Positions 25,556 through 63,315 are shown, numbered from the stretch's first letter. The stretch: DNA of 64,000 nt from Smithella sp. (GCA_049517435.1 JBEKRZ010000001.1:409-64408), one strand, 5' to 3'. Translations and numbers: made by a program. Notes: generated by a model from the sequence alone, not told the origin.

Positions 25556-25565
25556 TTGATTTTAT

Positions 25566-26903: not shown

Positions 26904-28568
26904 ATGCCGATGGGAAAGAAAAAAAAAGGCCGGCCGGATATAAAAGCATTGAGTCCAAAATCCCTGACTGACCATGGCCCGATACGACAGAAAAGGGCTG
27001 TTGAAGGCCACTGGGATGACAATTTCGCCATTAAATATTGTGGATACGCCTTTCTATTGGCCATTGTGGTCTTAGCTGTTTTTTTGCGAGTCTATGATAT
27101 AAGCGCCAAAGATGTTTGGTGTGACGAAGCCAATTCCGTGATTATTGCGGAGCTAAATCCTTCCGGCATCATTACCCGTATGAGCCATGATGCAAGCCCT
27201 CCACTTTATTATTTGTTATTACATTCCTGGATGTATGCCTTCGGAGAAACGGAATTGGCGTTACGTAGTTTGTCCGTTCTGTTTGGAATTTTGTTGATCA
27301 TCGCTGTTTATTTTACCGGCAAAAGAATATTCTCCGAAAAGGTGGGACTTTCTGCTGCGTTGATTGCCTCTGTGGCCCCGATTCATATCATGTATTCACA
27401 GCAAATCCGGATGTACACACTTCTGCCCCTCATGTCTCTTATGTCCATGTACTACCTGCTGCGCTTTATCCAGGAAAAGAAGATCTCCTTCCTCGCAGGG
27501 TACGGGATATTCACTATACTCAGCCTCTTCACTCATAATTATGGCATATTTCTTCTTCCCGCCCAAGCTTTATTGGTTCTACTTTTTGTGAGACAACGCC
27601 AAATGATTTTGTGGTGGTTCTTTAGTGTTGTCTGCATATGTGCTGTCTATGCCATATGGATCCCATCTCTTTCTGGTCAGATTTCGGCAGTCCCAAAGAC
27701 TGGATGGAGGGATTACTTCTGGAATCTTTACGGCTTCGGAGGATCGCTTTTCATGAGCGCTGCTTCCTTTTCTCCCGGAGGTCCGCTGCCTCCCTATGTG
27801 CCCCTCAATTCTATGCGCTGGATGCCTGTACTGCCGGTAGTTATCATGCTTTTACTACTGATAGCCAGCCTGATTCCTCTATTCAACAAAAAGTATGATC
27901 AGTGGAAAACAGGAGTTGGCTGGCTTGCCGTTTATTGTTTCATTCCTCTGATTTCCGCGGGAATTGTGTCTTATTTACACTCTAATATATACCTCCCGGG
28001 ACGCACTGACCAACTTGTTTTTCCAGCTTTCTGTCTTTTGGCAGCTGTCGGTATTCAACAGTTCCGGCCCGTTTTTCTACGGTACGCAGCAGTTACGCTG
28101 ATTATGGTTTGTTCTTTACTTACATTGTATGATTATTACAGAATCGATCTACAACAAGGGAATAAAATGATAGCGCAAACCATCAAAGAGCGTTTGGCTC
28201 CTGGTGATACAATTCTCTGTACGTCCTTGACAAGGGGATTTCTCGAATATTACCTGAGAGAGGAAAAGCCACGTCCGCATTTCTATTCGTATCCACCGGC
28301 GAAAGGGCGAAGTACAGGCGGTGAAGACGTTGCAGGGCTTCTCAAAAATCCGTGGAAACTGGACGAGCAGACAAAACTGTTGTTCAGCGAGGTCAAAAGC
28401 CATTCCTCAAGTGGACGCTGCTTCATCGTGTATGTGCCAAACGAGGTCAATAAATTTCTGGATGTGACGTTTATAACGAATGTTCCGGCTGGTCAAATAA
28501 CGAATATGGGCAGATTCAAACAATCTCTTTTTCAATTACCTGTTTATATTATTCTGGTTCATTTTTAA
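26904..28568 (+). CDS. GT-C fold membrane glycosyltransferase (ArnT/PMT, GT39/GT83-like).
   Basis: It has more than 10 TM segments, with a DEANS motif in the first periplasmic loop (VWCDEANSVIIAE) and a soluble C-terminal domain. The true start is uncertain. Confidence 0.75.
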   Translation: MPMGKKKKGRPDIKALSPKSLTDHGPIRQKRAVEGHWDDNFAIKYCGYAFLLAIVVLAVFLRVYDISAKDVWCDEANSVIIAELNPSGIITRMSHDASPPLYYLLLHSWMYAFGETELALRSLSVLFGILLIIAVYFTGKRIFSEKVGLSAALIASVAPIHIMYSQQIRMYTLLPLMSLMSMYYLLRFIQEKKISFLAGYGIFTILSLFTHNYGIFLLPAQALLVLLFVRQRQMILWWFFSVVCICAVYAIWIPSLSGQISAVPKTGWRDYFWNLYGFGGSLFMSAASFSPGGPLPPYVPLNSMRWMPVLPVVIMLLLLIASLIPLFNKKYDQWKTGVGWLAVYCFIPLISAGIVSYLHSNIYLPGRTDQLVFPAFCLLAAVGIQQFRPVFLRYAAVTLIMVCSLLTLYDYYRIDLQQGNKMIAQTIKERLAPGDTILCTSLTRGFLEYYLREEKPRPHFYSYPPAKGRSTGGEDVAGLLKNPWKLDEQTKLLFSEVKSHSSSGRCFIVYVPNEVNKFLDVTFITNVPAGQITNMGRFKQSLFQLPVYIILVHF

Positions 28569-39506: not shown

Positions 39507-40262
39507 TTATCTAATCCACACCTTATAGATGACCCACAAGCCTTCAATCAAAACCAGTACACCCAAGCCTTTTTTCAGAATTTCTTTAGAGCCTATTTTA
39601 CTTAAAGCCATCGGACCGAAAAAACCGCCAACCGCTGATCCCACACACAGAGGAACAATTAAAGAAATCGATGGTGTGCCATTGAGCAGCAACCAGAGCA
39701 AAAAACTTAAGAGACAGATAGGAGCTTCAGCAAAGTCCGTCGATCCTATCGCGCCTTTTTCCGACCTGTCTTTGAAAACAAGCTGACCTCCGGCAACGAG
39801 CGGCCCGAATCCGCCACCCGATAAAGCTTTATTAAACGCGCTGATAAAACCGAGGGCGTATATTTTTTTTGATGTCATGATTAATGTTTTCCCCGATAGA
39901 ATCATTAACGCGATTACAATAACCAAAATGGCAATGTATGTATTCAGAATTTTCGGCGAGATCGATATGGAAATAAAGACACCGATAACGCAGGCAAATA
40001 CACCAAACCATATAAGTGTAGTGGTCACGTGATAATCAATTGTGCCTGTTTGAAAATTGGCGTTTTTTAACTGGTGATGTCTATATGATGCCACAAAACC
40101 GCCGGCAGCTTGAGAAATTAATATGGCCGGAACGACACTTTTAACATCATATCCGATAAGAATCAAAAAAGGTGAAAGGACTGTTCCATACATCATGCCC
40201 AATGCGCTATCTACAAATTCCATGACCATCGCAAAAATAACTAAGTAAAATGATTCCATCAA
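39507..40262 (-). CDS. TauE/SafE (DUF81) family anion permease, a putative sulfate/sulfite transporter.
   Basis: It has about 7-8 TM segments in a duplicated 4-TM pattern with glycine-rich motifs (ALGMMYGTVLSPFL; LSGGGFGPLVAGG). It lies directly upstream of cysD. Confidence 0.6.
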   Translation of the reverse strand: MMESFYLVIFAMVMEFVDSALGMMYGTVLSPFLILIGYDVKSVVPAILISQAAGGFVASYRHHQLKNANFQTGTIDYHVTTTLIWFGVFACVIGVFISISISPKILNTYIAILVIVIALMILSGKTLIMTSKKIYALGFISAFNKALSGGGFGPLVAGGQLVFKDRSEKGAIGSTDFAEAPICLLSFLLWLLLNGTPSISLIVPLCVGSAVGGFFGPMALSKIGSKEILKKGLGVLVLIEGLWVIYKVWIR

Positions 40263-41022
40263 TATGAAACCTCCTTGGATATAAGATCGTTTTTATCGTG
40301 CCTTTCGATAGAAACCGGGTAAAGCATCATCCGTTAAATGGAAGAGCCGCAGGCTAAATCCCGGATCACAGCATGCGTCTTCATGATCGCAGAAAAGATC
40401 CTGATTCATTCTTTTCGCCATATCAACCGACCAGTAACAAAAAGGCGGCCATACACTAAAAAAAAATATAATACTTTGGAAAAGGTGGAAAATAATATCA
40501 CAAGAAGTGGTTTTTCGCGAGGCGCAAAAATTATTTCGTTTATTTTCATATAGATCAATATTCCCCCGCAAAAATTTAGTTGTTATTTTGTTATCCTGTT
40601 TCACTCAGCTCTTCAGCCGGATAACAGCCATATTATGGCAGTATTCCTTCTTAAGTTTTCCGGAACTCGTCACTCCATAGGAATAACAATAAGCTGCCAT
40701 TTTAAATGATAAAGGAAAAAGTCAGGAGTGCTTCAAAGAAAATATCAGCCGATAAAAATTCTTGGATAACTGCATGGCAATACCTCCTTGAAAAAATTGT
40801 TAAGAAAATTTCAATATTGCAACTTCACTTTTTCCGATAACCTAAATAACCTTAATACCCTGAAGGGCACCATGGGGTCACGTAGAGTCTCACATGAGTT
40901 GAAGACATAATAGCACTATTTATTTTTCTAAAAAATACACAGTATCATTTATCAAGGGAAGAAGTGCTTGTTGACTTCACTTGCAAGTCAGCAGAAGCAG
41001 TGCGATCAATGGTTACCCATTA

Positions 41023-41901
41023 CTAATCGAAATATGCGATAGATTCTCTACCAATTTGGTATCCGCACTGCCTGCAAATTGGCAGGATGAACATACCTCT
41101 TGAGACCTGCTTGCGGATATTATTAAAGCTTGACGATTCCCAAATCTCCTGAAGAGAATTTGTAATAAGACTGCCCATCACGTACTCTTCTAGTCCGTCG
41201 TGACAACAGAGTATGACGTTGCCATTTGATTTTACAACGCAGGTGTAGATTTTATCGCAGGGGGAATATTTTTTTATTACTCCAATATTATTTTTAAGTT
41301 CTTCTTTTCCTCTGCTCCAAAGAGCGAAATTCCGATAATCATCTCGCATATCTATTAATTCCATAGCTGAATATTCAGAGGCAATTTGAGCCAGTTCCAG
41401 CGCTTTCTTGTCTGAAGTGGGTTCATGAATGCTCACCATTATTTTATCCATACCAGCGGCGATAAGTTGTGACATTATCTTTTTTGTCAACAGATCACCG
41501 TTGGAAAAGATGACGACCGGGCAGTTCGGTAGATAATTTTTTACGAATTTAATAAATTCGCAGAGTCGCTTATCTAACAGAGGTTCATTATAGCTGTGAA
41601 GGGAAATCCTTCCTTTAAATCCCCAAGCTTTTAGGCTGAAGATGATACTCTGGAAAAGCTCTTCTGTCATAATTACACCTTGATTTAGCCGGGAGCAGTA
41701 CCAGCAGTGCCTATTACAGCGCCAGTCGGTCTCAATATTGATTGCTACCGGCAGATCACGACCATCATATAACCTCAAACGTATATAACGATTTTGTAGA
41801 ACTCGTCTAAGGTTATTTATGCTAGTTCTATATTTCTCTGGTAGGAATCTAAAAACCAGACGCTTAATAAATATTAATATTTTCATATCTATTTGACCCA
41901 C
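41023..41901 (-). CDS. Radical SAM protein with a Cys-rich (SPASM/twitch-like) C-terminus.
   Basis: It has a CNRHCWYC (CX3CX2C) motif and C-terminal cysteines (CDKIYTCVV...LCCHD...CRQCG). Its start overlaps the upstream radical SAM gene by 13 nt. Confidence 0.75.
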   Translation of the reverse strand: MGQIDMKILIFIKRLVFRFLPEKYRTSINNLRRVLQNRYIRLRLYDGRDLPVAINIETDWRCNRHCWYCSRLNQGVIMTEELFQSIIFSLKAWGFKGRISLHSYNEPLLDKRLCEFIKFVKNYLPNCPVVIFSNGDLLTKKIMSQLIAAGMDKIMVSIHEPTSDKKALELAQIASEYSAMELIDMRDDYRNFALWSRGKEELKNNIGVIKKYSPCDKIYTCVVKSNGNVILCCHDGLEEYVMGSLITNSLQEIWESSSFNNIRKQVSRGMFILPICRQCGYQIGRESIAYFD

Positions 41902-42794
41902 TCACTGATTTCCTGTTTGGAGCGTTCCCACTTATGACCAAATGATCGATTTCTTACATCGCAGTAGCGGCAAAATGGCTTTGGACAGATCAAAAAATTG
42001 AAAATTTCCGATGCTTTTTCCACACGATAAATATCCAGAAAATCCCCACTTTCGAGTTTCATGTTCGTTCCAAACCTCTTATTGAAATGACAAACATTCG
42101 GCGCAACAACGCATGCATAAAATTTCCCCTCCATCAACAATGGAAAAGTATTGACCTGAAAACATTCGATGAAGCTCTTTCTCGAATCTTGATGCCCCTC
42201 AATGTCCAGAGGGTTTTTGTAAGAATCTCTAGGAAAATTTTCGGTACCTTTATAATGCTCAAATATAACACCATGCGCCGCTGCGGTTTTCTTCATGGCT
42301 TTGTAATCTAAATTGATAGGGTATTTAGTATTAACAATGACGATATTTTGTTCGCGGCATATCCGCCAAAAATCTTCGTCTTGCCGGAGCAATAGAAGTC
42401 CGTTTGTTACAAGATGTATCAATGTTCCGGGAAAGAACAACCGTGTAGAAATCAATATTTCTTTTAGTTGCGGGTGTAGTAAAGGTTCGCCACCCATAAC
42501 TCCGATACGTGCAACATCTCCTTTCAGTATTTTTGACATTTGGGCAAGGTCTTTTTTTATGTCATCCAATGAAACAAATCTCTCATCTGCAATCGCGGCA
42601 AAATGCTCGCAACCTTTGCATTTAAGATTGCAATGGTCAAGAATGTTCAAAACAAAATATGACAGATGTTTTTGTGGTGTAAGGCGCTGTTTTGCGGTCT
42701 TTTTTAAATATACCTGTCGATATGTCATTTTGGAAACCAGTTTATGACTCAGAAAAAAACCGTCCAAAAATTGTCGCACCTTATGCTTGAACAT
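41889..42794 (-). CDS. Radical SAM protein.
   Basis: It has CNLKCKGC (CX3CX2C), GGEPLLHP, and a C-terminal CPKPFCRYC. Confidence 0.75.
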   Translation of the reverse strand: MFKHKVRQFLDGFFLSHKLVSKMTYRQVYLKKTAKQRLTPQKHLSYFVLNILDHCNLKCKGCEHFAAIADERFVSLDDIKKDLAQMSKILKGDVARIGVMGGEPLLHPQLKEILISTRLFFPGTLIHLVTNGLLLLRQDEDFWRICREQNIVIVNTKYPINLDYKAMKKTAAAHGVIFEHYKGTENFPRDSYKNPLDIEGHQDSRKSFIECFQVNTFPLLMEGKFYACVVAPNVCHFNKRFGTNMKLESGDFLDIYRVEKASEIFNFLICPKPFCRYCDVRNRSFGHKWERSKQEISEWVK

Positions 42795-42885
42795 AATGAC
42801 CTCTCGCTGGCGATTGACAAATAGCTTCCAATGTTGATTGTATTCCTTGTATAGCTGATACCTGTTATTTCTATGTACGAGTTTA

Positions 42886-43857
42886 TTATCCGCTTATATT
42901 TTTTAATAATTTTTTTCTTATTTTGCCCATGGCGAATTTAAAACCATTATTACGCCAGTATTGGAAAAAACCATATGATATTTTTGTCAAACTATGTGAA
43001 TCTATAAATCTTCGTAATTTTAAAGATTTTCGTTTTAATTTGTGAAGTCTAAACGGCGACTTTTTGAAATACTCATCCCATTCACGGACAAAATCACTGT
43101 CAAAATAAATCCAAGGCTTTTCATAGCTGGCCAAATGGATAATGCATGAAGCTTCTTTTATATTATCCCAAGATGAATAATTTGTTCCAAAATACTTGTT
43201 TATATAATCAAGAGTATACCCACCTCTATAATACATAAGAATATTATAACAACAATTATATATTATCGGCAATAATCTAACTTTCTTATCAAACACGATA
43301 TTGAAACAATCTTGATCCATAAAAGTCAATTTTTCCGCTGATTTGCGGTTATTAAACAATGCCATTGATGTATTGTTTTTCCTCATCAATTTAAGATTTA
43401 ACAGCATTACTCCGGAATTAAAATAATCTTTAATATGAAGATCATTATCAACCATTCCGATATCTTTGATCACTCCCGCATAATAATCATCGATGTCTGC
43501 TTCAAACAGATCGCTTAAGTCTTTTTGTATTATGACATCACCATCTAAATACAGCACTTTATCCTGATGGGGAATCAAATCCGGTAAATCAAATTTAAAA
43601 CAAGACGTAGAAGTAATGTGAATAAATTTAGGTATGTCTTCAAACTTTTTCAAAGATACTTTAATTATATGAATATCGGCTTTGCTTTCTCTGAATTCAT
43701 AGAACTTTTCTATTTCCATTTCTGATAAATCAGCGGCTATTATATAAATATCATAATATGTATCAGGATTCTTATTGCAAATCAAAGAAGTGATAGCAAC
43801 AACTGTCGGTATTACGTAATGGCTGTCGCAAATAAAAGCTACCGGAACCATTGTCAA
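42886..43857 (-). CDS. Glycosyltransferase family 8 (LPS/glycogenin-type retaining GT).
   Basis: It has an N-terminal VAFICDSHYVIPTVVAITS, a YLDGDVII (DxD) motif and FNSGVMLLN. It is the first gene of the minus-strand operon. Confidence 0.8.
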   Translation of the reverse strand: MTMVPVAFICDSHYVIPTVVAITSLICNKNPDTYYDIYIIAADLSEMEIEKFYEFRESKADIHIIKVSLKKFEDIPKFIHITSTSCFKFDLPDLIPHQDKVLYLDGDVIIQKDLSDLFEADIDDYYAGVIKDIGMVDNDLHIKDYFNSGVMLLNLKLMRKNNTSMALFNNRKSAEKLTFMDQDCFNIVFDKKVRLLPIIYNCCYNILMYYRGGYTLDYINKYFGTNYSSWDNIKEASCIIHLASYEKPWIYFDSDFVREWDEYFKKSPFRLHKLKRKSLKLRRFIDSHSLTKISYGFFQYWRNNGFKFAMGKIRKKLLKNISG

Positions 43858-44262
43858 ATAAATAACCTCATTATTTTTTAATACATAATATTATGACCTA
43901 TCGTCGATAGTTCATACCACATATTAAGTTAGAGCTCAGCAGTTTTTTGATTATTTCCGATTGTAATGTTGTGTGATCTGGGAAGATAAGGAAACATTGT
44001 TGCAGAAAGAGGTGCTTGTTTAGTTCAACTAATAGACATTAGTTTTACGTCTCTTTATCCCATAACCTTTTCCGGCCATCCATAATATAAGTGGTATAAC
44101 GCATTGTGCAAAAAAGTCGTATAATATAAGCCTGTCTGAATTATATTTTGTGACAGGGGAAAATATCAAAATAAGAGCAGATTTTTCAAAAGAACTGATG
44201 TCGCAATGTGCCACCACCACTATCATCGGTGCCGCACCATAGATTTTGAGACCATTTCTTAA

Positions 44263-44291
44263 TTGACATATAATTATAATTAACTTATATC
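44263..44291 (+). promoter_or_regulatory. Candidate promoter of the adenylation/carrier cassette.
   Basis: TTGACA (44263-44268), then a 17-nt spacer, then TATATC (44286-44291). It lies about 40 nt upstream of the 44331 ATG. Confidence 0.4.
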
Positions 44292-44330
44292 TCCTTTAAA
44301 AGTAAGTTCTTATCAAAGAATAATGATTAG

Positions 44331-45854
44331 ATGAATTGCCGTTCACTGAACAATAGTATTGAGGAAGTGATAAAGTGCACTGCTCATGCAGATCCGGCGG
44401 CAAGTGCTATAGTTTCTTCAAAATACAATCCACTTTCGTATTCGCAACTGGCTTGGCAGATCAACCACGTTGCCGGCACACTGAGCAAATCAGGAGTTAA
44501 AAATTCTACCCGTATTGCAATTGCTGTAAAAGATGCCGCGCCAGCCGCATTGGCAATCGTAGCTGTTGCGTGTTTTGCGGCGGCTGTTCCCCTGGATCAG
44601 AATCTGGCGGCGGCAGAAATTGAGATACGGCTCAAGCTTCTGAACATAGATGCAGTCTGCGTGCTTGACGGTGAAGATACTGCGACCAGACTTGTCGCCG
44701 AGAAGCATAGGATTCCAATAATCGAACTTGTACGGCAGGATAAGCACAAACTTTCATTTTCGATGTCTGTCCCGGAAATTTCAAATAAAATTCAACCGGA
44801 TGATGCCCCATTGGATGATGTGGCTGTCATTTTTCAAACATCCGGAACTACGGCAGAACCCAAATTAGTTCCGTGCTTCCACTCCACTTTGCTGGCCGCG
44901 GCCCAACGCACTTGTATGTGGTTCAACCTCAATAAAAATGATCGATGCCTGAGCATTGCGCCCCCCTATTACAGTCATGGCCTGACATTCACAATACTGG
45001 CGCCGCTTCTTTCGGGCGGCAGTGTGGCGTTTCCATCAAGTCCGAATGAGGTGAATTTAGTTGAATGGTTTGAGACGCTAAGCCCGACATGGTTCTCAGC
45101 ATCACCTACCATGCATTTGGCAATTTCTGAAAAATTAGCATCAACCTCATCAGGTCTGAAGCATCAACTCAGACTTGCCGGTTCCGGTGGAGCACAACTA
45201 CCGGAAAATGTGCGATCAAATTTACAGATGGCGCTGGGGATTCCTATTCTTGAACACTATGGCATGACGGAGGCCAGTCAGATTTCCACAAATTTGCCTC
45301 CGCCCGGGCCGTATAAATCAGGCACTGTCGGAATTCCGCCTAGTGATACCGTGATTATTGCCGGGAGCGGCGGCAATGCTTTGCCGCCAGGCCAAAAAGG
45401 TGAAATTTGGGTTCGCGGTCAAAATGTAATAAGGGAGTATTTGAATGGACCGGATTTGAACCAGACGGCTTTTTCCAATGGCTGGTTTCGGACAGGAGAC
45501 ATCGGCAGTTTTGACGAAGATGGCTTTTTAATGATTCACGACAGAATAAAGGAGCTCATCAATCGCGGCAGCGAAAAAATTTCACCATTTGAGATTGAAG
45601 CAATTATATTAAAACATCCTGATGTCTTGGAAGCTGTGGCCTTTGCCGTGCCGCACCCGCGTCTGGGCGAGGATGTGGCTGCCGCGGTAGTGTTACGCCC
45701 GGGGGCAATTTTGGATAATGTCGAATTCCGACGCTTTATGAGCGCGCATTTATCATGGAACAAAATTCCCAGACGAGTCCACATCATGGAAAGTATTCCG
45801 AAAGGCCTTGGTGGAAAGGCGCTGCGCAGAACACTAAGAGAACTTTATTCATGA
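44331..45854 (+). CDS. AMP-dependent synthetase/ligase (stand-alone adenylation enzyme).
   Basis: The ANL core motifs are present: FQTSGTTAEPKLV (A3), HYGMTE (A5), WFRTGDIG (A7) and PKGLGGKALR (A10 Lys). Confidence 0.88.
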   Translation: MNCRSLNNSIEEVIKCTAHADPAASAIVSSKYNPLSYSQLAWQINHVAGTLSKSGVKNSTRIAIAVKDAAPAALAIVAVACFAAAVPLDQNLAAAEIEIRLKLLNIDAVCVLDGEDTATRLVAEKHRIPIIELVRQDKHKLSFSMSVPEISNKIQPDDAPLDDVAVIFQTSGTTAEPKLVPCFHSTLLAAAQRTCMWFNLNKNDRCLSIAPPYYSHGLTFTILAPLLSGGSVAFPSSPNEVNLVEWFETLSPTWFSASPTMHLAISEKLASTSSGLKHQLRLAGSGGAQLPENVRSNLQMALGIPILEHYGMTEASQISTNLPPPGPYKSGTVGIPPSDTVIIAGSGGNALPPGQKGEIWVRGQNVIREYLNGPDLNQTAFSNGWFRTGDIGSFDEDGFLMIHDRIKELINRGSEKISPFEIEAIILKHPDVLEAVAFAVPHPRLGEDVAAAVVLRPGAILDNVEFRRFMSAHLSWNKIPRRVHIMESIPKGLGGKALRRTLRELYS

Positions 45855-46951
45855 ATAGTATGACACAGGAAAATTTGAGTGACGTTGCCTTGGAAAAAGA
45901 ACTTCTGGATATCTGGCGACGTGCGCTCAAGAATGAAAATTTGACTATCGATGACGACTTTTTTGAGTGCGGCGGGGATTCATTGCTCGCCATACAAGTG
46001 TTCCTGGAGACCGAGCAGCTCACAGGGAAATCATTGGCGAAATCAATAATATTCGAAACGGGCACTGTGCGGGTGTTGTTAAAGAAAATTATGTCAGCGG
46101 ATAAAATTAAGCCTCAGGTTTCCGTCCGAATAGGTTCTGTAAATGGAAAAATAATTCATTTTTTCCATGGCGACTTTGAATTTGGAGGAGTTTTCATTAA
46201 AGCTTTCTCCAAAATGCTTGGCAGCGATTACCTTATCCATGCGATAGCTCCCCATTTACCTCATGAAGGTAATATGCCGGACTCAATAGAAGATATGGCT
46301 AAAGAAAGATTGCCCAATATTATTGAAAAACAGCCTGATGGGCCGTATATGATACTTGGACACTGCAACGGGGCGCTGGTCGCATTTGAAACGGCAAGAC
46401 AACTTATTTTAATAGATAAGGAAGTAAAAGCCGTGGTAATGATCGATCCGGTAATAATGTCAGTCAGGAAGTCCGCACAGTTCATTTTTATAATCGCAGA
46501 CCTCTTTATGCGTCTGATGGGTTTTCATAAAAGCAAGCGTAACAAGCGCCTGATCTGGATCTGGAGAAAAATGGTAGGCTTGGATGGACTGACTAAAGAT
46601 AGCTGGTGTCGCGCTCTTTCCTTCTGTCAGGAGACCTGGCCTCAGAAACGAACATCGCTAAAAAAAATTCTGGAGTATATTGGCAACCACATCAATAACA
46701 AAGAACCCGACCATAAATCCGAAGAACAAAAAAATATAGACCAGCATTACAGAAATGTTTTATTAAACTATAGAACCCTTCAGCTGGACGTACCCGTGTT
46801 ATACATTTCTTTGGAATTTAGCGGATATGCGTGGCGGCGGATTGCCAGGAATACTGTTTATATTAATATATGCCGTGGAAAACACGACTTTTGGAATGAA
46901 GAATATTCACAAGACCTGTTCAATAAAATAAAGGATTTTATAAACCGCTGA
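45851..46951 (+). CDS. Carrier protein (PCP/ACP) fused to an alpha/beta-hydrolase thioesterase with a Cys nucleophile.
   Basis: The start is re-set to the ATG at 45851, giving an ATGA overlap with the ligase stop. It has a phosphopantetheine site FFECGGDSLLAIQV, a nucleophile elbow ILGHCNGALVA (Cys codon 46364-46366), and later Asp (VVMIDP) and His (RGKHDF) candidates. Confidence 0.8.
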   Translation: MNSMTQENLSDVALEKELLDIWRRALKNENLTIDDDFFECGGDSLLAIQVFLETEQLTGKSLAKSIIFETGTVRVLLKKIMSADKIKPQVSVRIGSVNGKIIHFFHGDFEFGGVFIKAFSKMLGSDYLIHAIAPHLPHEGNMPDSIEDMAKERLPNIIEKQPDGPYMILGHCNGALVAFETARQLILIDKEVKAVVMIDPVIMSVRKSAQFIFIIADLFMRLMGFHKSKRNKRLIWIWRKMVGLDGLTKDSWCRALSFCQETWPQKRTSLKKILEYIGNHINNKEPDHKSEEQKNIDQHYRNVLLNYRTLQLDVPVLYISLEFSGYAWRRIARNTVYINICRGKHDFWNEEYSQDLFNKIKDFINR

Positions 46952-46957
46952 TATATT

Positions 46958-47959
46958 ATGAATAAACTATCAAACAACCCCGTGTACGATATCAGTCTGT
47001 CATATCAAAAGACAGCAGCCATGAAAGCGGCAATTGAGTTGGATATTTTCACCAAAATTAGCGATCAAAATTTGAGTGTTGAGCAAATCTCGGATATTAC
47101 CGGCGCTTCGCTGCGCGGGGTGCGCATTCTGTGTGACTTTCTTTGCGCTATTGGTTTGCTGGAAAAAAACAAAAATCTCTATAACCTTTCGATGGAAGCA
47201 AAAAGATTTCTTGATCGGACATCGCCGCATTACATTGGCGATGTAATTGACTTTCTGGCTGCGCCGGAGATAGTCTCCATGATAACGGATGATCCGAAAT
47301 CTTATGTGATAAAGGGAGGGTCTTCCGGATTGACAAAGATTTCACCGGAGAGCCCTGTTTGGGTAAAATTCGCACGGGCAATGATTCCTTTCGCTTCTGT
47401 AGCGGCTAAGCGAACCACAGCCTACATTGCAAAAAAAGCAATGCAACCGCGCAAAGTATTGGATGTCGCGGCAGGACACGGTCTATTTGGCATAGAAGTG
47501 GCGAATGCTATAAAAGATGCTTTGGTTACGGCCATTGACTGGGAAAATGTTTTGGCAGTTGCCAGAAGAAATGCTGATTTAGCAGGAATGGCTGATCGAT
47601 ATAAAACAACAAGCGGTAATGCTTTAGAGATCGACTGGGGCGATAACTATGATCTTATTTTGCTGCCGAATATACTACATCATTTTGATCAAGATGGATG
47701 TATTCATCTGCTCGGCAAGGCGAAAGATTCTCTCTCTATCGATGGTTCTGTATTCGTGATAGATCTTATGCCAAATCCGGATCGTATATCGCCGCCGGAG
47801 CAGGCGGCCTTTGCTTTTCGGATGTTGGCAACGACTCCGTCAGGCGATGCCTATACTTGTGCCGAATATGAAACAATGGCCAGAGTTGCCGGATTGACTT
47901 TAGTAGACTCGATGCGGCTCCTGCCAACGCCGCAAACTCTGCTGGAATTTAAACTTTAG
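46958..47959 (+). CDS. Class I SAM-dependent O-methyltransferase (family 2 type, with an N-terminal dimerisation/wHTH domain).
   Basis: It has a SAM motif VLDVAAGHGLFG and acidic DWENV / LPNILHHF motifs. Its ~333-aa length is typical of small-molecule OMTs. Confidence 0.8.
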   Translation: MNKLSNNPVYDISLSYQKTAAMKAAIELDIFTKISDQNLSVEQISDITGASLRGVRILCDFLCAIGLLEKNKNLYNLSMEAKRFLDRTSPHYIGDVIDFLAAPEIVSMITDDPKSYVIKGGSSGLTKISPESPVWVKFARAMIPFASVAAKRTTAYIAKKAMQPRKVLDVAAGHGLFGIEVANAIKDALVTAIDWENVLAVARRNADLAGMADRYKTTSGNALEIDWGDNYDLILLPNILHHFDQDGCIHLLGKAKDSLSIDGSVFVIDLMPNPDRISPPEQAAFAFRMLATTPSGDAYTCAEYETMARVAGLTLVDSMRLLPTPQTLLEFKL

Positions 47960-48373
47960 ATGAGGAGAATTATGGGCATAAAAATATTCAAAGGCATTGA
48001 GAGCGCACACGATACTGACAATATATCCGGCATTAAGGGAATCTTAAGACTTTCATTCCTGGAAAAGGAATATATAAAGGGAAAATCATTTCACATTGCG
48101 TCGCACATTATAGAAGGCTCTTATATTCATAAGAAAGTGTGGAATTATTCACAGGCGCATAAGCACGACTTTGACGAAATAAACATGCTTATATCGGAAA
48201 AGTCCACTCTGAAATATAAACTGGAACTGGATGGAAAAGAGGAAGAAATCATTTCGCCCTCACTTATTTTTATCCCGGCCGGAACCACCCACCATGCCGA
48301 GCCGGTATGCGGAACGGGTATATTTCTATGCATCTATCTTGACACTGATGTCAAAGATGATGTAAAAATTTAA
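47960..48373 (+). CDS. Cupin-domain protein.
   Basis: A beta-barrel motif region (LIFIPAGTTHHAEPVCGTGIFLCIY) is present. The alternative start ATG at 47972 is preceded by GAGGAG. Confidence 0.5.
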   Translation: MRRIMGIKIFKGIESAHDTDNISGIKGILRLSFLEKEYIKGKSFHIASHIIEGSYIHKKVWNYSQAHKHDFDEINMLISEKSTLKYKLELDGKEEEIISPSLIFIPAGTTHHAEPVCGTGIFLCIYLDTDVKDDVKI

Positions 48374-48387
48374 TGGAGTAATTTTCT

Positions 48388-49509
48388 ATGGAATCCAGAG
48401 TTGTTGTTGTTCATGCGGATATTGATCCTGTAAAAGGTATTGCCCGGCCGGGACCTCACCAGATGTACAAGAACCCCCGGATATCGGTGGAGGACCGAAA
48501 GTTACCGGTGCTCCGTCCGGACGAAATTCGGGTAAAAATGATATACGCCGGCATATGCGGAACGGACGTACATCTCGTGACCACGCATCCGGATACCGGC
48601 TATATAAGATGTTCATCTCCGGCTCAAATCACCGCTGCAGGCCGGGTCATCGGTCACGAGGGCATGGGCAGAGTTCTTGAAGTAGGCTCTCAAGTCCGCC
48701 ACGTGCAGCCAGGCACTTACGTCACATTTGAGTCTATTATAGTCTGCCATTACTGCGATGAGTGCAGAAGAGGAGACTTTAATCAATGTCGTCATGCGCT
48801 GCTGCTGGGATTGGAGAAAGATGGACTCTTCGGCGATATTGTCGATGTCCCGTCCATGCTTACCCACGACGTTAGCGATATGACGGGAAGTGAAAAGGGA
48901 CGGCAGGCAGCTGCCTGTGTGGAACCGGCGAGTGTCGCTTATGTGGCCTGCCAGAACACGCATCTGAAAGCTGGAGACGTTGTTGCCATCTTTGGCGCCG
49001 GTCCTATTGGATTATTTGCCGCCATGTTGAGCAAGGCTGTTTTCGGCGCCTCCCAGGTGCACATGGTTGAACCTGTTTTGTTCCGGCGAAAACTGGCCGG
49101 AAAATGGAGCGATGAGATCTACGACATTGATGAATTCTTTAACCATGGCCCATCATCTGTTGATGTCGTAATAGAGGCATCCGGAAACATGGTCAATATC
49201 AACAGGGTATTCCGCAGATTAAATGCCAACGGACGTGTCGCTATTCTCGGCAGGAGTGGTGAGCCTCTGTCATTGGATGCAGTGGACCACATGATTACCA
49301 ACGCGGTTTCTATAATAGGGTCGAGAGGGCATCTGGGCGGCGCATTTGCAAGAATTTTGACGTTGTACCGCAATGGAATCATATCCCTTGATGCTGCTGT
49401 AACCGGCATCATCAATGGTCCGGAGAAAATTTGTGATCTTTTAATTTCTCCGAAAAAGCTTCTTGAAGAAAACTGCAAGGTTTTAGTGAACTTTGATTGC
49501 AATGAGTAA
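48388..49509 (+). CDS. Zinc-dependent medium-chain dehydrogenase/reductase (threonine/sorbitol dehydrogenase-like).
   Basis: It has a catalytic Zn region (CGTDVH, GHEGMGRV), a structural Zn motif (CHYCDECRRGDFNQC) and a Rossmann motif (GAGPIGL). Confidence 0.85.
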   Translation: MESRVVVVHADIDPVKGIARPGPHQMYKNPRISVEDRKLPVLRPDEIRVKMIYAGICGTDVHLVTTHPDTGYIRCSSPAQITAAGRVIGHEGMGRVLEVGSQVRHVQPGTYVTFESIIVCHYCDECRRGDFNQCRHALLLGLEKDGLFGDIVDVPSMLTHDVSDMTGSEKGRQAAACVEPASVAYVACQNTHLKAGDVVAIFGAGPIGLFAAMLSKAVFGASQVHMVEPVLFRRKLAGKWSDEIYDIDEFFNHGPSSVDVVIEASGNMVNINRVFRRLNANGRVAILGRSGEPLSLDAVDHMITNAVSIIGSRGHLGGAFARILTLYRNGIISLDAAVTGIINGPEKICDLLISPKKLLEENCKVLVNFDCNE

Positions 49510-49566
49510 AAACTTTTCAGTTATGTAACTAATTCTTTTAGCACCGCAATGCTGGATACTATGCTC

Positions 49567-49618
49567 CAAATAGTAATCCTCAATTCTGAAAACTACCCTT
49601 TATTGAAACTTTGTAGGT
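49567..49618 (+). repeat. Direct repeat R1, flanking the TPR GT-C gene.
   Basis: CAAATAGTAATCCTCAATTCTGAAAACTACCCTTTATTGAAACTTTGTAGGT is roughly 80% identical by eye to 51813-51864. Confidence 0.75.
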
Positions 49619-49670
49619 GAAAGAAATAATTCTGACGGTTCGCAAATCGGATTTTTATTTCTTCCTTCCT

Positions 49671-49820
49671 GTAATGTTGTTTTTCGTATTTTCCTAATTT
49701 ATACAACATTTCAATCCGTAATAAACACAATTCACGCCCAACAAATATCGTCTTCTACCTTTAACATTTTGAGGCCATTATTTCCTTTGACATGCAAGAC
49801 CGTTTTTTTTATATTGCTTA
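49671..49820 (+). promoter_or_regulatory. Conserved promoter-leader element, copy B (upstream of the TPR GT-C gene).
   Basis: It is homologous to 26611-26740, with a ~24-nt insertion. It has TTGACA (49787-49792), a 17-nt spacer, and TATATT (49810-49815). Confidence 0.55.
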
Positions 49821-49901
49821 CCATTAGAATCGATAACAAAATATAGGATATATAGGGGATTGGGTTATTCTGTTTAATTGTTACGTGGAGATTCTCTATT
49901 A

Positions 49902-51785
49902 ATGAAGAAAAAATACATTTACCTTGTCGTAATATTTTTAATAGTTGCTTCTTTTATTGCGTATTGCCGAATTTTAGGGAATGGATTTATTAATTTTGAT
50001 GACATACAATACATTACCAAAAACAATCATATTAAATCAGGCATTAATCCTGAAAGTATTAAATGGGCGTTTAGTACTGTTGATCTATACTACTGGCAGC
50101 CACTTACTTGGCTTTCGCACATGTTGGATTGGAATTTGTTTAAGGATAATGCCGGTGGCTACCACTTAATCAGTTTGCTTCTGCATATAGGCAGTGTTCT
50201 CCTTCTATTTTTCTTTTTAAACAGGACGACAAATAATATTTGGCCTTCGGCCTTCGTTGCGGCTCTTTTTGCCCTGCATCCCCTGCGGGTTGAATCCGTA
50301 GCCTGGGCCGCCGAGCGCAAAGACGTTTTAAGTATGTTTTTCGGATTAGCGAGTATTTATGCCTATGCCTGTTATGTCGAAAATTTTAAAATTTCCCAAT
50401 ATATTATTTGTTTAATATTATTTGCGTTGAGTTTGATGGCTAAACCAATGCTGGTCACTTTGCCTTTTGTTTTGTTGCTTCTTGATTATTGGCCGCTGGG
50501 CCGATGGCAAAAGGTTCTCACTCCAGTAGAAGTGCCGATAGATGCTACTGAAAGAGCACCGAAGAAAAAAGCTAAAAAGCGTAAAGCCGATTCTATTAAC
50601 GAGAAAAAAAAATTCATACCGCTGACGAGCAGTTATCAAATAATTCGCTCTCTTTTATGGGAAAAGGCGCCTTTTATTTTCTTAACCATCATTTCAAGTA
50701 TTGTGACTATCTGGGGTCAAAATAAATTCGGCGTGGTTGTTTCCATGGAAAATCTGCCCTTTTCTGCACGTGTTCAGAACGCGGTCATTTCTTATGTTTC
50801 TTATTTAGGAAAAACTTTTTGGCCGGTTGACCTGGCCATATTTTATCCATATGAATACACTTTTCCGTTCTGGAAAATCTTAGCTTCTTGCTTCATCTTT
50901 ATTGGCATTACCATTGTTGTGATTTATGCTATTAAGAAATTGCCTTTTTTATTCGTCGGTTGGTTTTTGTATTTGGGAACTCTGATTCCCGTAATTGGGT
51001 TCGTGCAGGTCGCCACACAATCGATAGCCGACCGCTTTACTTATCTACCCTCTATCGGCATTGCTGTTATGCTGGCCTGGGGTATTCCGTCTTTGATTAA
51101 GAATGAAGAAACACGCAAAAATATTTTGTTACCGGTAGGAATATTCGTCTTAGTTATCTTATCCGCTTTAACGTGGCATCAATGCGGTTATTGGAAAAAC
51201 AGTATTGAACTTTTCAGTCACACTTTGCAGGTAACAAAAGATAATGCTCAGGCGCATAACAATTTTGGCCTTGCCCTGTTTGTCGAAGGAAAAATAGAAG
51301 AGGCTATTTTTCATTATAACGAGGCCATCTGTATAAAACCGGATCGCTTATATTATTCAAACAGGGGGGATGCTTACCGTAAGTTAGGCCAGTATCAACG
51401 TGCCATCGAGGACTATAATGAAGCCATCCGCCTGAAACCGGATTTCAATGCCTACTACGACAGGGGGAATGCTTATGAGGATCTCGGTCAGCATCAACAG
51501 GCCATCGAAGATTATAATGAAGCCATCCGCCTGAAACCGGATTTCAATGCCTACTACAACAGAGGGAATGCTTACACTAAGTTAAACCAGTATCAACTTG
51601 CCTTGAAGGACTATAATGAAGTCATCCGCCTGAATCCGGATTATGCCGAAGCCTACAACAACCTGGGAGTTGTCTATTTTATACAGGGCAACAAAAATCT
51701 TGGCTGTCGTAATGCGCAAAAAGCATGTGAATTAGGAAAGTGCAAAATATTAGAAATGGTCACAGGCAAGGGGGACTGCCGTTAA
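49902..51785 (+). CDS. GT-C fold membrane glycosyltransferase fused to C-terminal TPR repeats (TMTC/PMT_2-like).
   Basis: The N-terminal multi-TM domain begins with an FDD motif (NGFINFDDIQYI). The C-terminus has 5-6 TPR units with repeated AIEDYNEAIRLKPDFNAYY. The ATG at 49902 is preferred over the TTG at 49878. Confidence 0.8.
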   Translation: MKKKYIYLVVIFLIVASFIAYCRILGNGFINFDDIQYITKNNHIKSGINPESIKWAFSTVDLYYWQPLTWLSHMLDWNLFKDNAGGYHLISLLLHIGSVLLLFFFLNRTTNNIWPSAFVAALFALHPLRVESVAWAAERKDVLSMFFGLASIYAYACYVENFKISQYIICLILFALSLMAKPMLVTLPFVLLLLDYWPLGRWQKVLTPVEVPIDATERAPKKKAKKRKADSINEKKKFIPLTSSYQIIRSLLWEKAPFIFLTIISSIVTIWGQNKFGVVVSMENLPFSARVQNAVISYVSYLGKTFWPVDLAIFYPYEYTFPFWKILASCFIFIGITIVVIYAIKKLPFLFVGWFLYLGTLIPVIGFVQVATQSIADRFTYLPSIGIAVMLAWGIPSLIKNEETRKNILLPVGIFVLVILSALTWHQCGYWKNSIELFSHTLQVTKDNAQAHNNFGLALFVEGKIEEAIFHYNEAICIKPDRLYYSNRGDAYRKLGQYQRAIEDYNEAIRLKPDFNAYYDRGNAYEDLGQHQQAIEDYNEAIRLKPDFNAYYNRGNAYTKLNQYQLALKDYNEVIRLNPDYAEAYNNLGVVYFIQGNKNLGCRNAQKACELGKCKILEMVTGKGDCR

Positions 51786-61010: not shown

Positions 61011-61571
61011 TCAAGAGTCCTTAAGTTCATACTGGAAATAAATATCATCATCGCCCGATGAAATACTCCTGACCTTTTTCGCAACAGTTTTCTTCCCGAA
61101 AATTTTGAGGACCTGCTGAAAGTAACCCATAATAAGGTACTCGAAGTAAGTATGTTTGATTGGAAGTCCGGTGATTTTGAAATGAACGATGTTGTTCTCG
61201 AACAGTGCGGTAGGTTTACCCTCGTCAAAATAGGTCGAGTAGAGTTTAGGCATGACCGACTCGACAAACTGCTTTATATCCTTTGTGAGCAGATAAGATT
61301 TGTACGGACCTTCTGGCGACACGGCAAATTTGGCGGCTGCCTTCCCAATCGTCACGTACTGCATCATATTGTTGTTGAAAAATTCCTTAATCATCTCGTC
61401 AAGAAAAAGGATGAATTTTTCCACCGGAATGGGGGTAACGGACATAATTACATTGCTGAAAAATTTGTCCTTTGCCGTCAGTTTGGGTATAAAGGAATTC
61501 CAGCGTTCCTCGCCGAAAGCTTCGATGAGATTAGTCTTTCCTGTAAGATAGACGATGCCTTTTACGTTCAT
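61011..61571 (-). CDS. H-NOX/V4R-clan-like (DUF2378-like) small soluble protein, tandem paralog 2.
   Basis: The start is re-set to the ATG at 61571 (MNVKG...), preceded by GGGAGG. The 186-aa protein is highly similar to 61625-62185. The family assignment rests only on overall pattern (N-terminal ...FGEERW..., C-terminal SSGDDDIYFQ). Confidence 0.7.
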   Translation of the reverse strand: MNVKGIVYLTGKTNLIEAFGEERWNSFIPKLTAKDKFFSNVIMSVTPIPVEKFILFLDEMIKEFFNNNMMQYVTIGKAAAKFAVSPEGPYKSYLLTKDIKQFVESVMPKLYSTYFDEGKPTALFENNIVHFKITGLPIKHTYFEYLIMGYFQQVLKIFGKKTVAKKVRSISSGDDDIYFQYELKDS

Positions 61572-61624
61572 ATTGAAACCTCCCAAGAATGCCTATGATA
61601 GATTAAACACTATATATTTTGTGG

Positions 61625-62185
61625 TCAAGAGTCCTTTAGTTCAAACTGGAAATAAATATCATCATCGCCCGATGAAATACTCCGGACCCGTTTCGCATCA
61701 GTTTTCTTCCCGAAAACACGGAGTGCCTGCTGAAAAAAACCCATAAGAAGGGACTCGAAGTTAAAATTTTTGATTGTAAGTCCGGTGATCTTGAGATGAA
61801 CGATGTTGTTCTCGAACCGTGTGGTAACTGCACCTCCGTCATAATAGGTCGACCAGAGTTTAGGCAGCCCCGACTCGACGAACTGCTTTATATCCTTTGT
61901 GAGCAGATAAGAGTGGTACAGGCCTCCCTGCGACAGGGCAAATTTGGCGGCTACCTTACCAAACATCAAGTATGAATTTTTGTCGTTGTTGAAGTATTCC
62001 TTAATCATTTCGTCAAGAAAAAGGATGAGTTTTTCAAGTGGAACGGGGGTAATGGACATGATCACATTGCTGAAAAATTTGTCCTTCGCCGCCAACTTGG
62101 CCATGAAGGAGTTCCAGCGTTCCTCGCCGAAAGCTTCGACGACAGTAGTCTTTCCTGTAAGATAAACAGTGCCTTTTACGTTCAT
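61625..62185 (-). CDS. H-NOX/V4R-clan-like (DUF2378-like) small soluble protein, tandem paralog 1.
   Basis: The start is re-set to the ATG at 62185, preceded by GGGAGG. It is 186 aa and offset exactly 614 nt from its paralog. Confidence 0.7.
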   Translation of the reverse strand: MNVKGTVYLTGKTTVVEAFGEERWNSFMAKLAAKDKFFSNVIMSITPVPLEKLILFLDEMIKEYFNNDKNSYLMFGKVAAKFALSQGGLYHSYLLTKDIKQFVESGLPKLWSTYYDGGAVTTRFENNIVHLKITGLTIKNFNFESLLMGFFQQALRVFGKKTDAKRVRSISSGDDDIYFQFELKDS

Positions 62186-62230
62186 ATCGAAACCTCCCAA
62201 GAACACCTAAGTAGATTAAATATAGCTTAT

Positions 62231-62506: not shown

Positions 62507-63067
62507 TCATTGAGAAAAAGATCTCACGAATAATTCCTTGATCGCTTTCTTGCCGTTTTCTTCAAGGAAACGGGTTCCTGTTCCGGTGAAATGGACATGG
62601 CCTATAACAGGCTCATCTGCCTTTTTGCGTTTGACCCATTCCAATTTATTCCAGGTGAACCAATTGTTTTTCTTTTGATCAAAAACATGCAATGGTTTGT
62701 TGCATATTTTGCTGAATTCGGCGCCCCAGCCGGTGCCGCCTCTAACGGTCTTATCGTCGAGTATCGCGCCGATTACAAAAATTTCCTGACCGTTGTTGAT
62801 CTGGTACCAGATACTTTGGAGGATCTTGCGAAAAGTCTCATTATCAGTGTAACGGCGATTCATTAATTTTGACACATATTCCAGACTCACATCGCCATTC
62901 TTCAGTTCTTCGTGATTGAGGATACGCAATCCCCGTTTACGGATCATGGTATGTCCGTTAAATGTAAAATTTACTTCTTCAATTCCAAAGCTCTCCGCGT
63001 TTACGCCAAATTCCGCTTCCGCCCCCTGAGCTCCGCCACTAAAGAGTATGCAATCTTCTTTTTTCAT
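62507..63067 (-). CDS. SLOG/LOG-like Rossmann-fold protein (DprA/LOG superfamily), function unknown.
   Basis: The start is re-set to the ATG at 63067 (MKKEDCILFSGGAQGAEAEFG). The glycine motifs SGGAQGAE and RGGTGWGAE resemble the GGGxxG and PGGxGTxEE motifs of LOG/SLOG proteins. The assignment is tentative. Confidence 0.45.
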   Translation of the reverse strand: MKKEDCILFSGGAQGAEAEFGVNAESFGIEEVNFTFNGHTMIRKRGLRILNHEELKNGDVSLEYVSKLMNRRYTDNETFRKILQSIWYQINNGQEIFVIGAILDDKTVRGGTGWGAEFSKICNKPLHVFDQKKNNWFTWNKLEWVKRKKADEPVIGHVHFTGTGTRFLEENGKKAIKELFVRSFSQ

Positions 63068-63315
63068 GTTTTTCCCTTTCAAAAACTTGCTTGTTTTTAT
63101 AACATTCAGAATGCAGAACTTATATCAAAGAAACAAAATAATAGCTAATGAATTAGAGTCCATCAACCTCAACGAGCATTCTTGATTTCAACCTGCAATC
63201 TTCGACAAATGTTCCAAGTTTCCCTTTTAGAAAAAAGGGATGTATGCTATGATGATTATATCCAAATCTAGAGTCGTGATTCAAGCCAGAACAAGAAAGA
63301 ACGGTAATGGGTTAA

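Follow-up and report, generated by a model that had tools for sequence, protein, structure and literature searches.

What would a bacterium do with a carrier protein that has no assembly line to serve and that is encoded among genes for glycan synthesis? The question is raised by five genes at positions 44331-49509 of a 64,000-nucleotide stretch of DNA from an uncultured Smithella sp. (GCA_049517435.1 JBEKRZ010000001.1:409-64408; "the window" means this whole stretch), which encode an acid ligase, a didomain of a peptidyl carrier protein and a thioesterase (PCP-TE), a methyltransferase, a cupin and a Zn-dependent dehydrogenase. An earlier interpretation made from the sequence alone (the sequence-only reading) had proposed that this cassette activates one carboxylic or amino acid, tethers and tailors it, and releases it or transfers it to the glycan or lipid built next door. 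We found that the conserved core is smaller than the cassette, that its thioesterase carries an invariant cysteine nucleophile, that its ligase has a pocket different from that of its oxalate-activating relatives, and that its close homologues lie mostly by glycan genes in unrelated lineages. We give about an even chance to the reading that this carrier-protein module methylates or oxidises a polar acid and transfers it, by way of an S-acyl-cysteine, to a surface glycan or glycolipid. The five genes are:

44331-45854, + strand: ANL-superfamily acid ligase, 507 amino acids (aa), AAE3/FadD7-like; Pfam AMP-binding (PF00501, E 1.9e-58) and AMP-binding_C (PF13193, E 5.3e-11)
45851-46951, + strand: PCP-thioesterase didomain, 366 aa; Pfam PP-binding (1.3e-9) and Thioesterase (5.5e-14)
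46958-47959, + strand: PF00891-type S-adenosylmethionine (SAM) methyltransferase, 333 aa; Pfam Dimerisation and Methyltransf_2
47960-48373, + strand: small metal cupin, open reading frame (ORF) of 137 aa; no Pfam or NCBIfam family, assigned by model and conserved ligands
48388-49509, + strand: Zn-dependent medium-chain dehydrogenase, 373 aa; Pfam ADH_N and ADH_zinc_N

The ORF listing and the domain matches confirm five co-directional, tightly packed genes divergent from an operon that opens with a family 8 glycosyltransferase (GT8), as the sequence-only reading had described. The ATGA overlap it had noted between ligase and PCP-TE lies at 45851-45854 (ATG 45851-45853, TGA 45852-45854; the listing gives the PCP-TE start as 45755/45851). 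The remaining intergenic gaps are of 6, 0 (or 12) and 14 nt, and ribosome sites of the GGAG type stand upstream of the second ATG of the cupin gene (47972) and of the dehydrogenase start. Because homologues of the cupin begin at residue 5 of the window protein, including one in locus L119 that is 88% identical, the sequence comparison suggests that the true start is probably the ATG at 47972, for a product of 133 aa. The listed cupin ATG comes directly after the methyltransferase stop, and an AGGAGA inside the first codons precedes the second ATG. The best explanation of this layout is a single operon built round a conserved accessory module. The description of a minimal carrier-protein cassette with no partner domain for chain elongation also holds, as neither a condensation (C) nor a ketosynthase domain was present in any island ORF scanned, and no characterised pathway matches the combination.

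The set of five does not hold up as a unit: it is one version of a core of three genes to which exchangeable tailoring genes are added, and in this core ligase and PCP-TE are always present and the methyltransferase usually. Metagenome loci were found with an alignment of the thioesterase core, a search with a generic PCP motif having returned mostly the ordinary termini of nonribosomal peptide synthetases (NRPSs). Ligase and PCP-TE are adjacent in all loci, usually with a 4-nt overlap or else fused, the fused proteins being of 860-929 aa and coming from several phyla. The methyltransferase gene is next in most Smithellaceae copies and in L033, L117, L119, L158, L200, L202 and L203, and the dehydrogenase was found in L001, L006, L110, L111, L114, L125, L127, L129 and L131. 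The cupin is confined, among the loci examined, to the window, L005 and L119, and many members consist of ligase and PCP-TE alone (L087, L088, L118). The distribution of the module is patchy: PCP-TE matches occur in 2 of 401 genomes sampled across the phylum and in 17 of 116 in the family, about 10 of these 17 being full length, and the methyltransferase was matched in none of 400 other alphaproteobacterial species. At L005:10001-13238 two PCP-TE genes (364 and 363 aa) stand on either side of the methyltransferase gene, with the cupin gene further downstream and no dehydrogenase gene in the stretch recovered. At L118:6444-8004 the ligase gene is in two ORFs of 290 and 247 aa, probably by a frameshift or an assembly error.

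In the PCP-TE, carrier Ser44 is encoded at 45980-45982, and the thioesterase triad consists of Cys172 (46364-46366), in a GHCNG nucleophile elbow whose cysteine the sequence-only reading had not mentioned, Asp199 (46445-46447) and His345 (46883-46885). An alignment of 24 homologues shows no variation in the GGDS carrier motif, in Cys172 or in Asp199 and almost none in His345, which removes the concern, raised with the sequence-only reading, that the carrier might lack a modifiable serine. The carrier domain scores 38.6 bits on PF00550 (cut-off 20.8) and forms a helical bundle in the model; modification of its serine is predicted. The thioesterase has the fold, the Asp199 and the His345 of the canonical type I enzymes (PF00975), but these have a serine nucleophile where the window protein has GxCxG with the invariant Cys172, and it therefore belongs to a rarer Cys subclass. 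The model of the didomain (predicted local distance difference test, pLDDT, 83.9) matches in fold the PCP-TE didomains of AB3403, EntF and SulM and the thioesterase of Pks13. Its lid (residues 205-306, about 100 aa) is inserted and helical, with 20 Lys/Arg against 10 Asp/Glu, the rest of the protein being net acidic, and this basic amphipathic lid could meet a membrane-bound or anionic intermediate. The genome holds only four PP-binding domains and therefore no NRPS or polyketide synthase (PKS) that would use the PCP, and on this ground a role for it in a larger assembly line elsewhere in the genome was rejected. There are two phosphopantetheinyl transferase genes, one of them Sfp-like. The second transferase ORF, Sfp-sized with 223 aa and located outside the window at G000:C6:8372-9518, about 1 kb from a small PP-binding ORF, is a candidate activator of the carrier domain of the cassette.

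The best match of the didomain, in sequence as in fold, is AB3403 of Acinetobacter baumannii (PDB 4zxh/4zxi; E 4.5e-16 and 1.6e-15), a C-A-PCP-TE termination module of an NRPS in which the nucleophile elbow also holds a cysteine (GWCFG, against GHCNG in the window). AB3403 has a condensation domain and an NRPS-type adenylation (A) domain in one polypeptide, whereas the window has a ligase of the acyl-coenzyme A (acyl-CoA) class and no C domain; the long basic lid is likewise unlike that of AB3403. ObiF1 (beta-lactone), SulM (monobactam) and MacB-TE have, like the window enzyme, the type I fold and a Cys where Ser is usual, and SulM and ObiF1 are also among its fold matches. These characterised Cys thioesterases are cyclases (PMC6668435, PMC11298585, PMC13288461) that act on peptides coming off multi-module NRPSs, whereas in the window a single acid would be loaded and no chain built. 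The fused relatives have the domain order of the NRPS-like A-T-TE enzymes of the atromentin/ralfuranone type, which dimerise aryl alpha-keto acids with an A domain specific for an aryl-pyruvate and a TE that joins two units, a lead given by domain order. The thioesterase of Mycobacterium tuberculosis Pks13 accounts for many of the fold matches (E about 5e-11). This enzyme passes its acyl chain to a sugar, trehalose, and not to water, and it is thus a precedent for sugar acylation by a thioesterase, the mechanism proposed here; it has a serine nucleophile, stands at the terminus of a PKS and handles a very long lipid, so the likeness is at the level of the fold only.

Which acid is loaded depends on the ligase. 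The core motifs TSGTTAEPK, YGMTEA, TGDIG and GGKALRR are seen in the alignment with its PDB matches, and the claim of a stand-alone ANL adenylating enzyme stands. The top PDB matches are oxalyl-CoA synthetases (6qjz, 5ie0, 8aff; E 4e-80), with feruloyl, malonyl, aryl and fatty-acid ligases next; the score on the NCBIfam FadD7 family is 328 bits, under the family cut-off, and the 25 best NCBIfam matches are mostly acyl-CoA ligases, together with aryl-acid adenylate synthases, with no model of an amino-acid-activating NRPS adenylation domain among them. Since the enzyme is of the acyl-CoA-ligase class, an amino acid is unlikely as substrate, and of the two kinds in the earlier proposal the carboxylic acid is favoured. 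The residues that line its pocket are S215-H216, G286-G287, G311-M312 and Q317. The plant and yeast oxalyl-CoA synthetases (AtAAE3, 5ie0; LsOCS, 6qjz; Pcs60, 8aff) are its closest solved relatives, alike over the full length and with the ANL core motifs in common. Ser289 and His319 of AtAAE3, which belong to the oxalate pocket, are conserved only among oxalyl-CoA synthetases, as described for the grass-pea enzyme (PMC8905533), and in the window ligase the residues aligned to them (Ser296 and His326 in LsOCS) are Gly287 and Gln317. By these two specificity residues the enzyme falls outside the oxalyl-CoA synthetases and oxalate was rejected as its substrate. Further changes from AAE3 are Val215 to Ser215, Cys288 to Gly286 and Ala313 to Gly311, with the SCSAS pocket segment turned into SGGA. 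SGGAP is the usual form in ligases for larger acids, for example 4-coumarate ligase and luciferase. Nearly all close relatives, among them those from Smithella, soil bacteria and marine contigs and with genes either split or fused, retain the motif YYSHG / SGGAP / HYG(M/S)(T/S)EAxQ; in L190 a Leu replaces the pocket Gln, and the more distant fusions of Reyranella and Bryobacterales have different pocket residues. Because the motif is kept in this way, the pocket residues suggest that the family probably activates one common acid, other than oxalate and larger. As for the thiol that receives it, the oxalyl-CoA synthetases use CoA, whereas for the window ligase the carrier protein is predicted, because of the ligase-PCP-TE fusions and the translational coupling of the two genes.

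One could still propose a true ligase of oxalate or of another small dicarboxylate, with the cassette handling oxalate through the carrier protein; the top PDB matches would agree with it, and so would the automatic JGI names, which call many family members 'oxalate---CoA ligase'. We hold this to be very improbable: the two oxalate-binding residues are replaced in nearly all close relatives as well as in the window, the AAE3 pocket segment is lost, and the methyltransferase, dehydrogenase and cupin would have no role on oxalate.

The tailoring enzymes add some indications on the acid. The methyltransferase scores 50.6 bits on PF00891 (cut-off 22.3) and 46.1 bits on the dimerisation domain PF08100 (cut-off 25.6). 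Its top PDB match is the uncharacterised 2r3s (E 8e-88), followed by DsyB, MfnG, O-methyltransferases of aromatic natural products (MmcR, DnrK), CalO1/CalO6 and the Plu489x enzymes, and it has homologues in at least 7968 clusters at E <1e-30. Its earlier naming as a small-molecule O-methyltransferase is kept as to the family (O-methyltransferase family 2), with O, C or S as possible targets. The dehydrogenase was rightly called a Zn-dependent member of the medium-chain dehydrogenase/reductase superfamily: PF08240 and PF00107 are over their cut-offs, and the catalytic Cys, the His-Glu pair (GHE) and the four-Cys structural Zn motif (CxxCxxC...C) are seen in the alignment. It is of the threonine/polyol/inosose dehydrogenase type, most like scyllo-inosose 3-dehydrogenase IolM (NCBIfam E 7e-65) and threonine dehydrogenase Tdh (E 3e-42), both under the equivalog cut-offs, with 2dq4 and 3ip1 as PDB matches.

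The 137-aa product has no Pfam match, but its assignment as a cupin is borne out by its model and its ligands. A HMMER search returned 149 homologue clusters, and the AlphaFold2 model, built on 51 of them (pLDDT 86.7, predicted TM-score 0.80), resembles MarH, KdgF and TM1459, all of them small metal cupins (Foldseek E about 1e-6). In the ligand set H67-x-H69-x3-E73 ... H111, residues H69, E73 and H111 are invariant and H67 nearly so, and model fold and ligand conservation together place the protein among the metal-binding monocupins. The substrate that MarH and StnK3 epimerise is a methylated alpha-keto acid, the product of a partner methyltransferase (PMC4742848). The pairs MarI-MarH and StnQ1-StnK3, in which a SAM methyltransferase and then a cupin of about 130 aa act on one small acid, are like the pair in the cassette, although MarH is only about 22% identical to the window cupin and the cassette has no aminotransferase. 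In the family of the window cupin, four representatives are fusions with methyltransferases and one is a fusion with an ANL enzyme. Identity of these fused methyltransferases and of the fused ligase to the window proteins is only about 24%, and the fusions were set aside as Rosetta-stone evidence for this reason, being informative at the level of the family only.

A clue to the acid comes from fourteen marine-metagenome contigs of a Pseudomonas-like clade (L142-L156, e.g. L143:6105-10832), which encode a fused ligase-PCP-Cys-TE protein with the same pocket (68-92% mutual identity). In all fourteen the next gene encodes a QuiC-type 3-dehydroshikimate dehydratase (1136 bits on NF042435; match to PDB 5hmq with an E-value of 0), and it overlaps the fused gene in the ORF calls that were checked, those of L142, L144 and L149. 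The reaction of 3-dehydroshikimate dehydratases yields protocatechuate, and the locus looks like an operon that joins protocatechuate formation to carrier-protein loading. Dehydroshikimate dehydratases of the QuiC type consist of two domains (PMC7442255). These contigs also have a LysR regulator upstream and a PAS histidine kinase downstream. The QuiC linkage, the aromatic O-methyltransferase relatives and a pocket that is polar and enlarged together make an acid derived from shikimate, hydroxy-aromatic or alicyclic, a candidate. Neither a QuiC-type dehydratase nor a chorismate lyase was found in the Smithella genome; the clue from the Pseudomonas-like clade is therefore not simply transferable, and a supply of protocatechuate in Smithella was rejected. 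That the nearest relatives of the ligase are not aryl-acid ligases also counts against an aromatic acid. By analogy, an alpha-keto or hydroxy acid is an alternative clue, because the cupin resembles MarH/StnK3 and because fusions of cupins with methyltransferases and an ANL enzyme exist.

Where the acyl group might go is suggested by the setting. The placement of the cassette in a glycan island was confirmed: a 26-kb island with glycosyltransferase (GT), sulfation and flippase genes extends from tRNA-Gly/Cys (25481-25641) to about 51.9 kb, with housekeeping genes on both sides (beyond 52 kb, CarD, a PIN protein, IspDF and GltX). The elements next to the cassette are:

42886-43857, - strand: GT8 glycosyltransferase, opening the divergent glycan/sulfation operon (Pfam)
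44246-44274, + strand: promoter-like site TTGAGA-17-TATAAT, sigma-70-like, 11/12 consensus matches; a match to the consensus, in itself not evidence of function
49878-51785, + strand: GT-C (PMT_2) glycosyltransferase fused to tetratricopeptide (TPR) repeats, downstream neighbour (Pfam)

The divergent spacer between GT8 and ligase genes, which contains the promoter-like site, is of 473 nt. The minus-strand operon upstream encodes, after GT8, two radical-SAM proteins, TauE, CysD, CysNC, a sulfotransferase, a radical-SAM/SPASM protein, four GT2 enzymes and a Wzx-type flippase, and a second GT-C gene lies at 26904-28568.

The sequence-only reading had asked whether the cassette genes co-occur with GT and sulfation genes elsewhere, and close homologues are indeed mostly found by glycan genes, often including sulfotransferases, in unrelated lineages. 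Split-type loci with the Cys thioesterase and the conserved pocket were grouped by hand into 15 arrangement classes, and glycan genes were counted within 8 kb:

Window, L005 and L110: GT8, radical SAM and sulfation genes
L111: GT2, GT2, Wzx and GT2 of the same island, at another junction
L007, L115 and L130: GT-C/TPR homologue only
L006: GT1, HAD, CMP-sugar synthetase-like, LpxL-like
L086: GT2, UDP-glucose dehydrogenase, Acyl_transf_3, PMT_2
L087: two GT8, GT1, a faint sulfotransferase match, NeuB, CTP_transf_3
L088: GT2, Gly_transf_sug, Sulfotransfer_2
L118: epimerase, weak GT92 match
P0091 contig: Sulfotransfer_3, GT2, GT1, GT2, NeuB
L158: two GT2, epimerase
L141: Sulfotransfer_4, ABC exporter, NeuB-cupin
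L001/L113 (purine genes), L117, L119 and L114: four classes without glycan genes

A GT1, GT2 or GT8 gene is present in 9/15 classes and a sulfotransferase gene in 5/15. As background, about 254 kb of the 3.1 Mb of the genome of the window (8%) lie within 8 kb of a GT1/GT2 match, and its single sulfotransferase gene is located in the island. The binomial tails are about 5e-7 for GTs and about 3e-7 for sulfotransferases, and 8e-4 and 6e-4 with generous backgrounds of 20% and 5%. The divergent pairing of GT8 and cassette also occurs in L005 and L110, and a GT8 stands beside the ligase/PCP-TE pair in the distant L087. Of the island genes, L007, L115 and L130 have only a GT-C/TPR homologue (51-55% identity), placed 2 kb downstream of the cassette, and in genome G425 the cassette borders, within the same island, on its GT2/Wzx section and not on its GT8 section. 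A second probe consisted of two distant methyltransferase homologues (53% identity), chosen at random on long contigs, and in both loci the methyltransferase gene was beside a fused ligase-PCP-TE gene inside a glycan locus. The glycan genes are a GT2-GtrA fusion, PMT_2 and GT4 in L202; in L203 a Gly_transf_sug gene lies between fused enzyme and methyltransferase, and GT61, Wzm/Wzt with a Wzt_C domain, GT8 and Acyl_transf_3 are also present. A situation in which homologues occur mainly outside glycan loci, in a known pathway, was looked for and is not what we found. The glycan link is a strong association, not a rule.

On this basis the proposed sequence of events would be as follows. The ligase would adenylate one polar carboxylic acid, the same across the family and other than oxalate, probably hydroxylated and possibly aromatic, and would load it onto the phosphopantetheine arm of the PCP, as suggested by the translational coupling and by the natural ligase-PCP-TE fusions. 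The PF00891 methyltransferase would methylate the acid or the tethered acyl group, and in the window genome the Zn-dehydrogenase and the cupin would further oxidise or reduce it and isomerise or epimerise it, in an order and with a chemistry that we can only propose. The acyl group would then pass onto Cys172 as a thioester and from there to an acceptor nucleophile other than water. The acceptor would most likely be a sugar of the sulfated surface glycan or glycolipid of the island, modified at the cytoplasmic face of the membrane, because the neighbours that recur in unrelated lineages are GT2, GT8, GT1 and GT-C enzymes, sulfotransferases, nonulosonic-acid genes and Wzm/Wzt. In members that consist of ligase and PCP-TE only, hydrolysis would amount to a futile ATP cycle, and therefore the thioesterase would have to transfer, cyclise or condense; transfer is more likely than simple hydrolysis. 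Combinatorial tailoring genes fit a decoration that diversifies a surface antigen. The acylation of an adjoining glycan or lipid, as put forward in the sequence-only reading, is in this sense backed by the recurrent glycan neighbours, while the transfer itself is our inference and 4/15 classes and most fused relatives lie elsewhere.

The analogy with Dlt-type D-alanylation, drawn in the same reading, turned out to be loose. D-alanylation by Dlt and the wbe tetronate branch of Vibrio cholerae O1 follow the same logic as the cassette, a ligase and a carrier that provide a non-sugar acyl substituent, and both are precedents for such genes inside glycan loci (PMC3441752 for the tetronate branch). 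Dlt needs DltB (an MBOAT protein) and DltD, and the wbe branch a separate acyltransferase, whereas in the window the Cys thioesterase fused to the carrier would make the transfer; none of the Dlt or wbe genes is orthologous to those of the cassette. A Dlt-like system was rejected, given that the island ORFs scanned include neither an MBOAT nor a DltD-like protein and that the ligase is of the wrong class, not DltA-like.

Several observations weigh against transfer to a glycan. No member of the family has been characterised, and the known Cys thioesterases (ObiF, SulM, MacB) cyclise and do not transfer to sugars. The GC content is 42-45% in the cassette (window 44000-50000) and 34-38% in the adjoining block of GT8 and radical-SAM genes (window 40000-44000); the island is therefore mosaic and the adjacency could be recent, the two halves of the divergent pair probably differing in origin. 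Four of the classes have no glycan genes, and the enrichment figures are approximate, given classes drawn up by hand and a background from a single genome. Among the fused relatives of soil Alphaproteobacteria and Acidobacteriota the neighbourhood tally showed no enrichment of glycan genes, so the association is limited to the split subfamily and the methyltransferase-linked members and does not extend to the whole superfamily. Finally, the Pseudomonas-like clade pairs the fused enzyme with QuiC instead of glycan genes.

Much of this would suit a module whose product is a free small molecule that the Cys thioesterase releases or self-condenses, with the location in a glycan island as a by-product of mosaic assembly; candidates would be a methylated aryl or hydroxy-acid ester, an oligo-ester or depside, or a strained lactone. 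The non-glycan contexts (L001/L113, L117, L119, most fused relatives and the QuiC-linked clade) and the different GC content of the cassette favour such a product, as do the cyclising activity of the characterised Cys thioesterases and the presence, among the structurally closest thioesterases, of the oligomerising EntF and the ring-forming SulM and ObiF. We nevertheless regard it as rather unlikely, since GT and sulfotransferase neighbours recur in unrelated lineages far over the genome background, a glycosyltransferase gene stands between fused enzyme and methyltransferase in L203, and the module has no co-travelling exporter or regulator. Another explanation makes the acid an aglycone or primer, a carrier-held hydroxy-aromatic acid that GT8 and its partners would glycosylate on the hydroxyl. 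Analogues are the mycobacterial p-hydroxybenzoate glycosides and phenolic glycolipids, which use the ligase-carrier fusion FadD22. It would explain the divergent pairing of GT8 and cassette in three Smithella genomes, with GT8 also in a distant lineage, and is in line with the aromatic O-methyltransferase relatives and with the operon linkage to protocatechuate-forming QuiC in one clade. Set against it are the lack of a QuiC-type dehydratase and of a chorismate lyase in the Smithella genome, ligase relatives that are not aryl-acid ligases, and the Wzx flippase and GT-C enzymes of the island, typical of polyprenol-linked and not of aglycone-primed assembly; it appears improbable to us. The probability left after the readings given here is assigned to something not yet conceived. 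Within the transfer reading, a bolder version would see in the trio a widespread, unrecognised glycan-modifying machine, in which the thioesterase is a dedicated acyltransferase that caps or decorates sulfated or ABC-exported surface polysaccharides. The acyl group would come from the shikimate pathway, as a methylated hydroxy-aromatic acid akin to protocatechuate or vanillate; this version we consider a long shot.

Non-sugar substituents on bacterial surface glycans govern recognition by phages, predators and the immune system, and the enzymes that install the unusual ones are mostly unknown. The cassette is one member of a very large family, with fused and split ligase-carrier-thioesterase genes in many phyla, none of them studied, and its trio of features is unusual: a re-purposed relative of oxalate ligases, a thioesterase with an invariant cysteine and a recurrent link to glycan loci that contain sulfotransferases. 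If the transfer from thioesterase to sugar is true, it would be the second independent sugar acyltransferase made from a thioesterase domain, after Pks13, and would provide a handle for predicting glycan decorations from genomes. If the bolder version holds, bacterial surface glycans would bear an aromatic acyl mark installed by NRPS-like chemistry, and if the product is instead a free metabolite, the family would offer an abundant and simple way to make small molecules of a new class.

Two further observations concern neighbouring genes. In L088 (10087-11610) and L158 (5896-7551), two unrelated soil contigs, a DMFA2_C-family protein of 507-551 aa, like the beta subunit of N,N-dimethylformamidase, is encoded on the opposite strand directly after ligase and PCP-TE. 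In the window, three paralogous ORFs of 191-193 aa lie on the - strand at 61011-61586, 61625-62206 and 62507-63082, with no Pfam or NCBIfam match, and L007, L114, L115 and L130 have homologues of them (55-64% identity) at 1-2 kb on the downstream side of the cassette; the ORFs could represent a mobile or island-associated gene.

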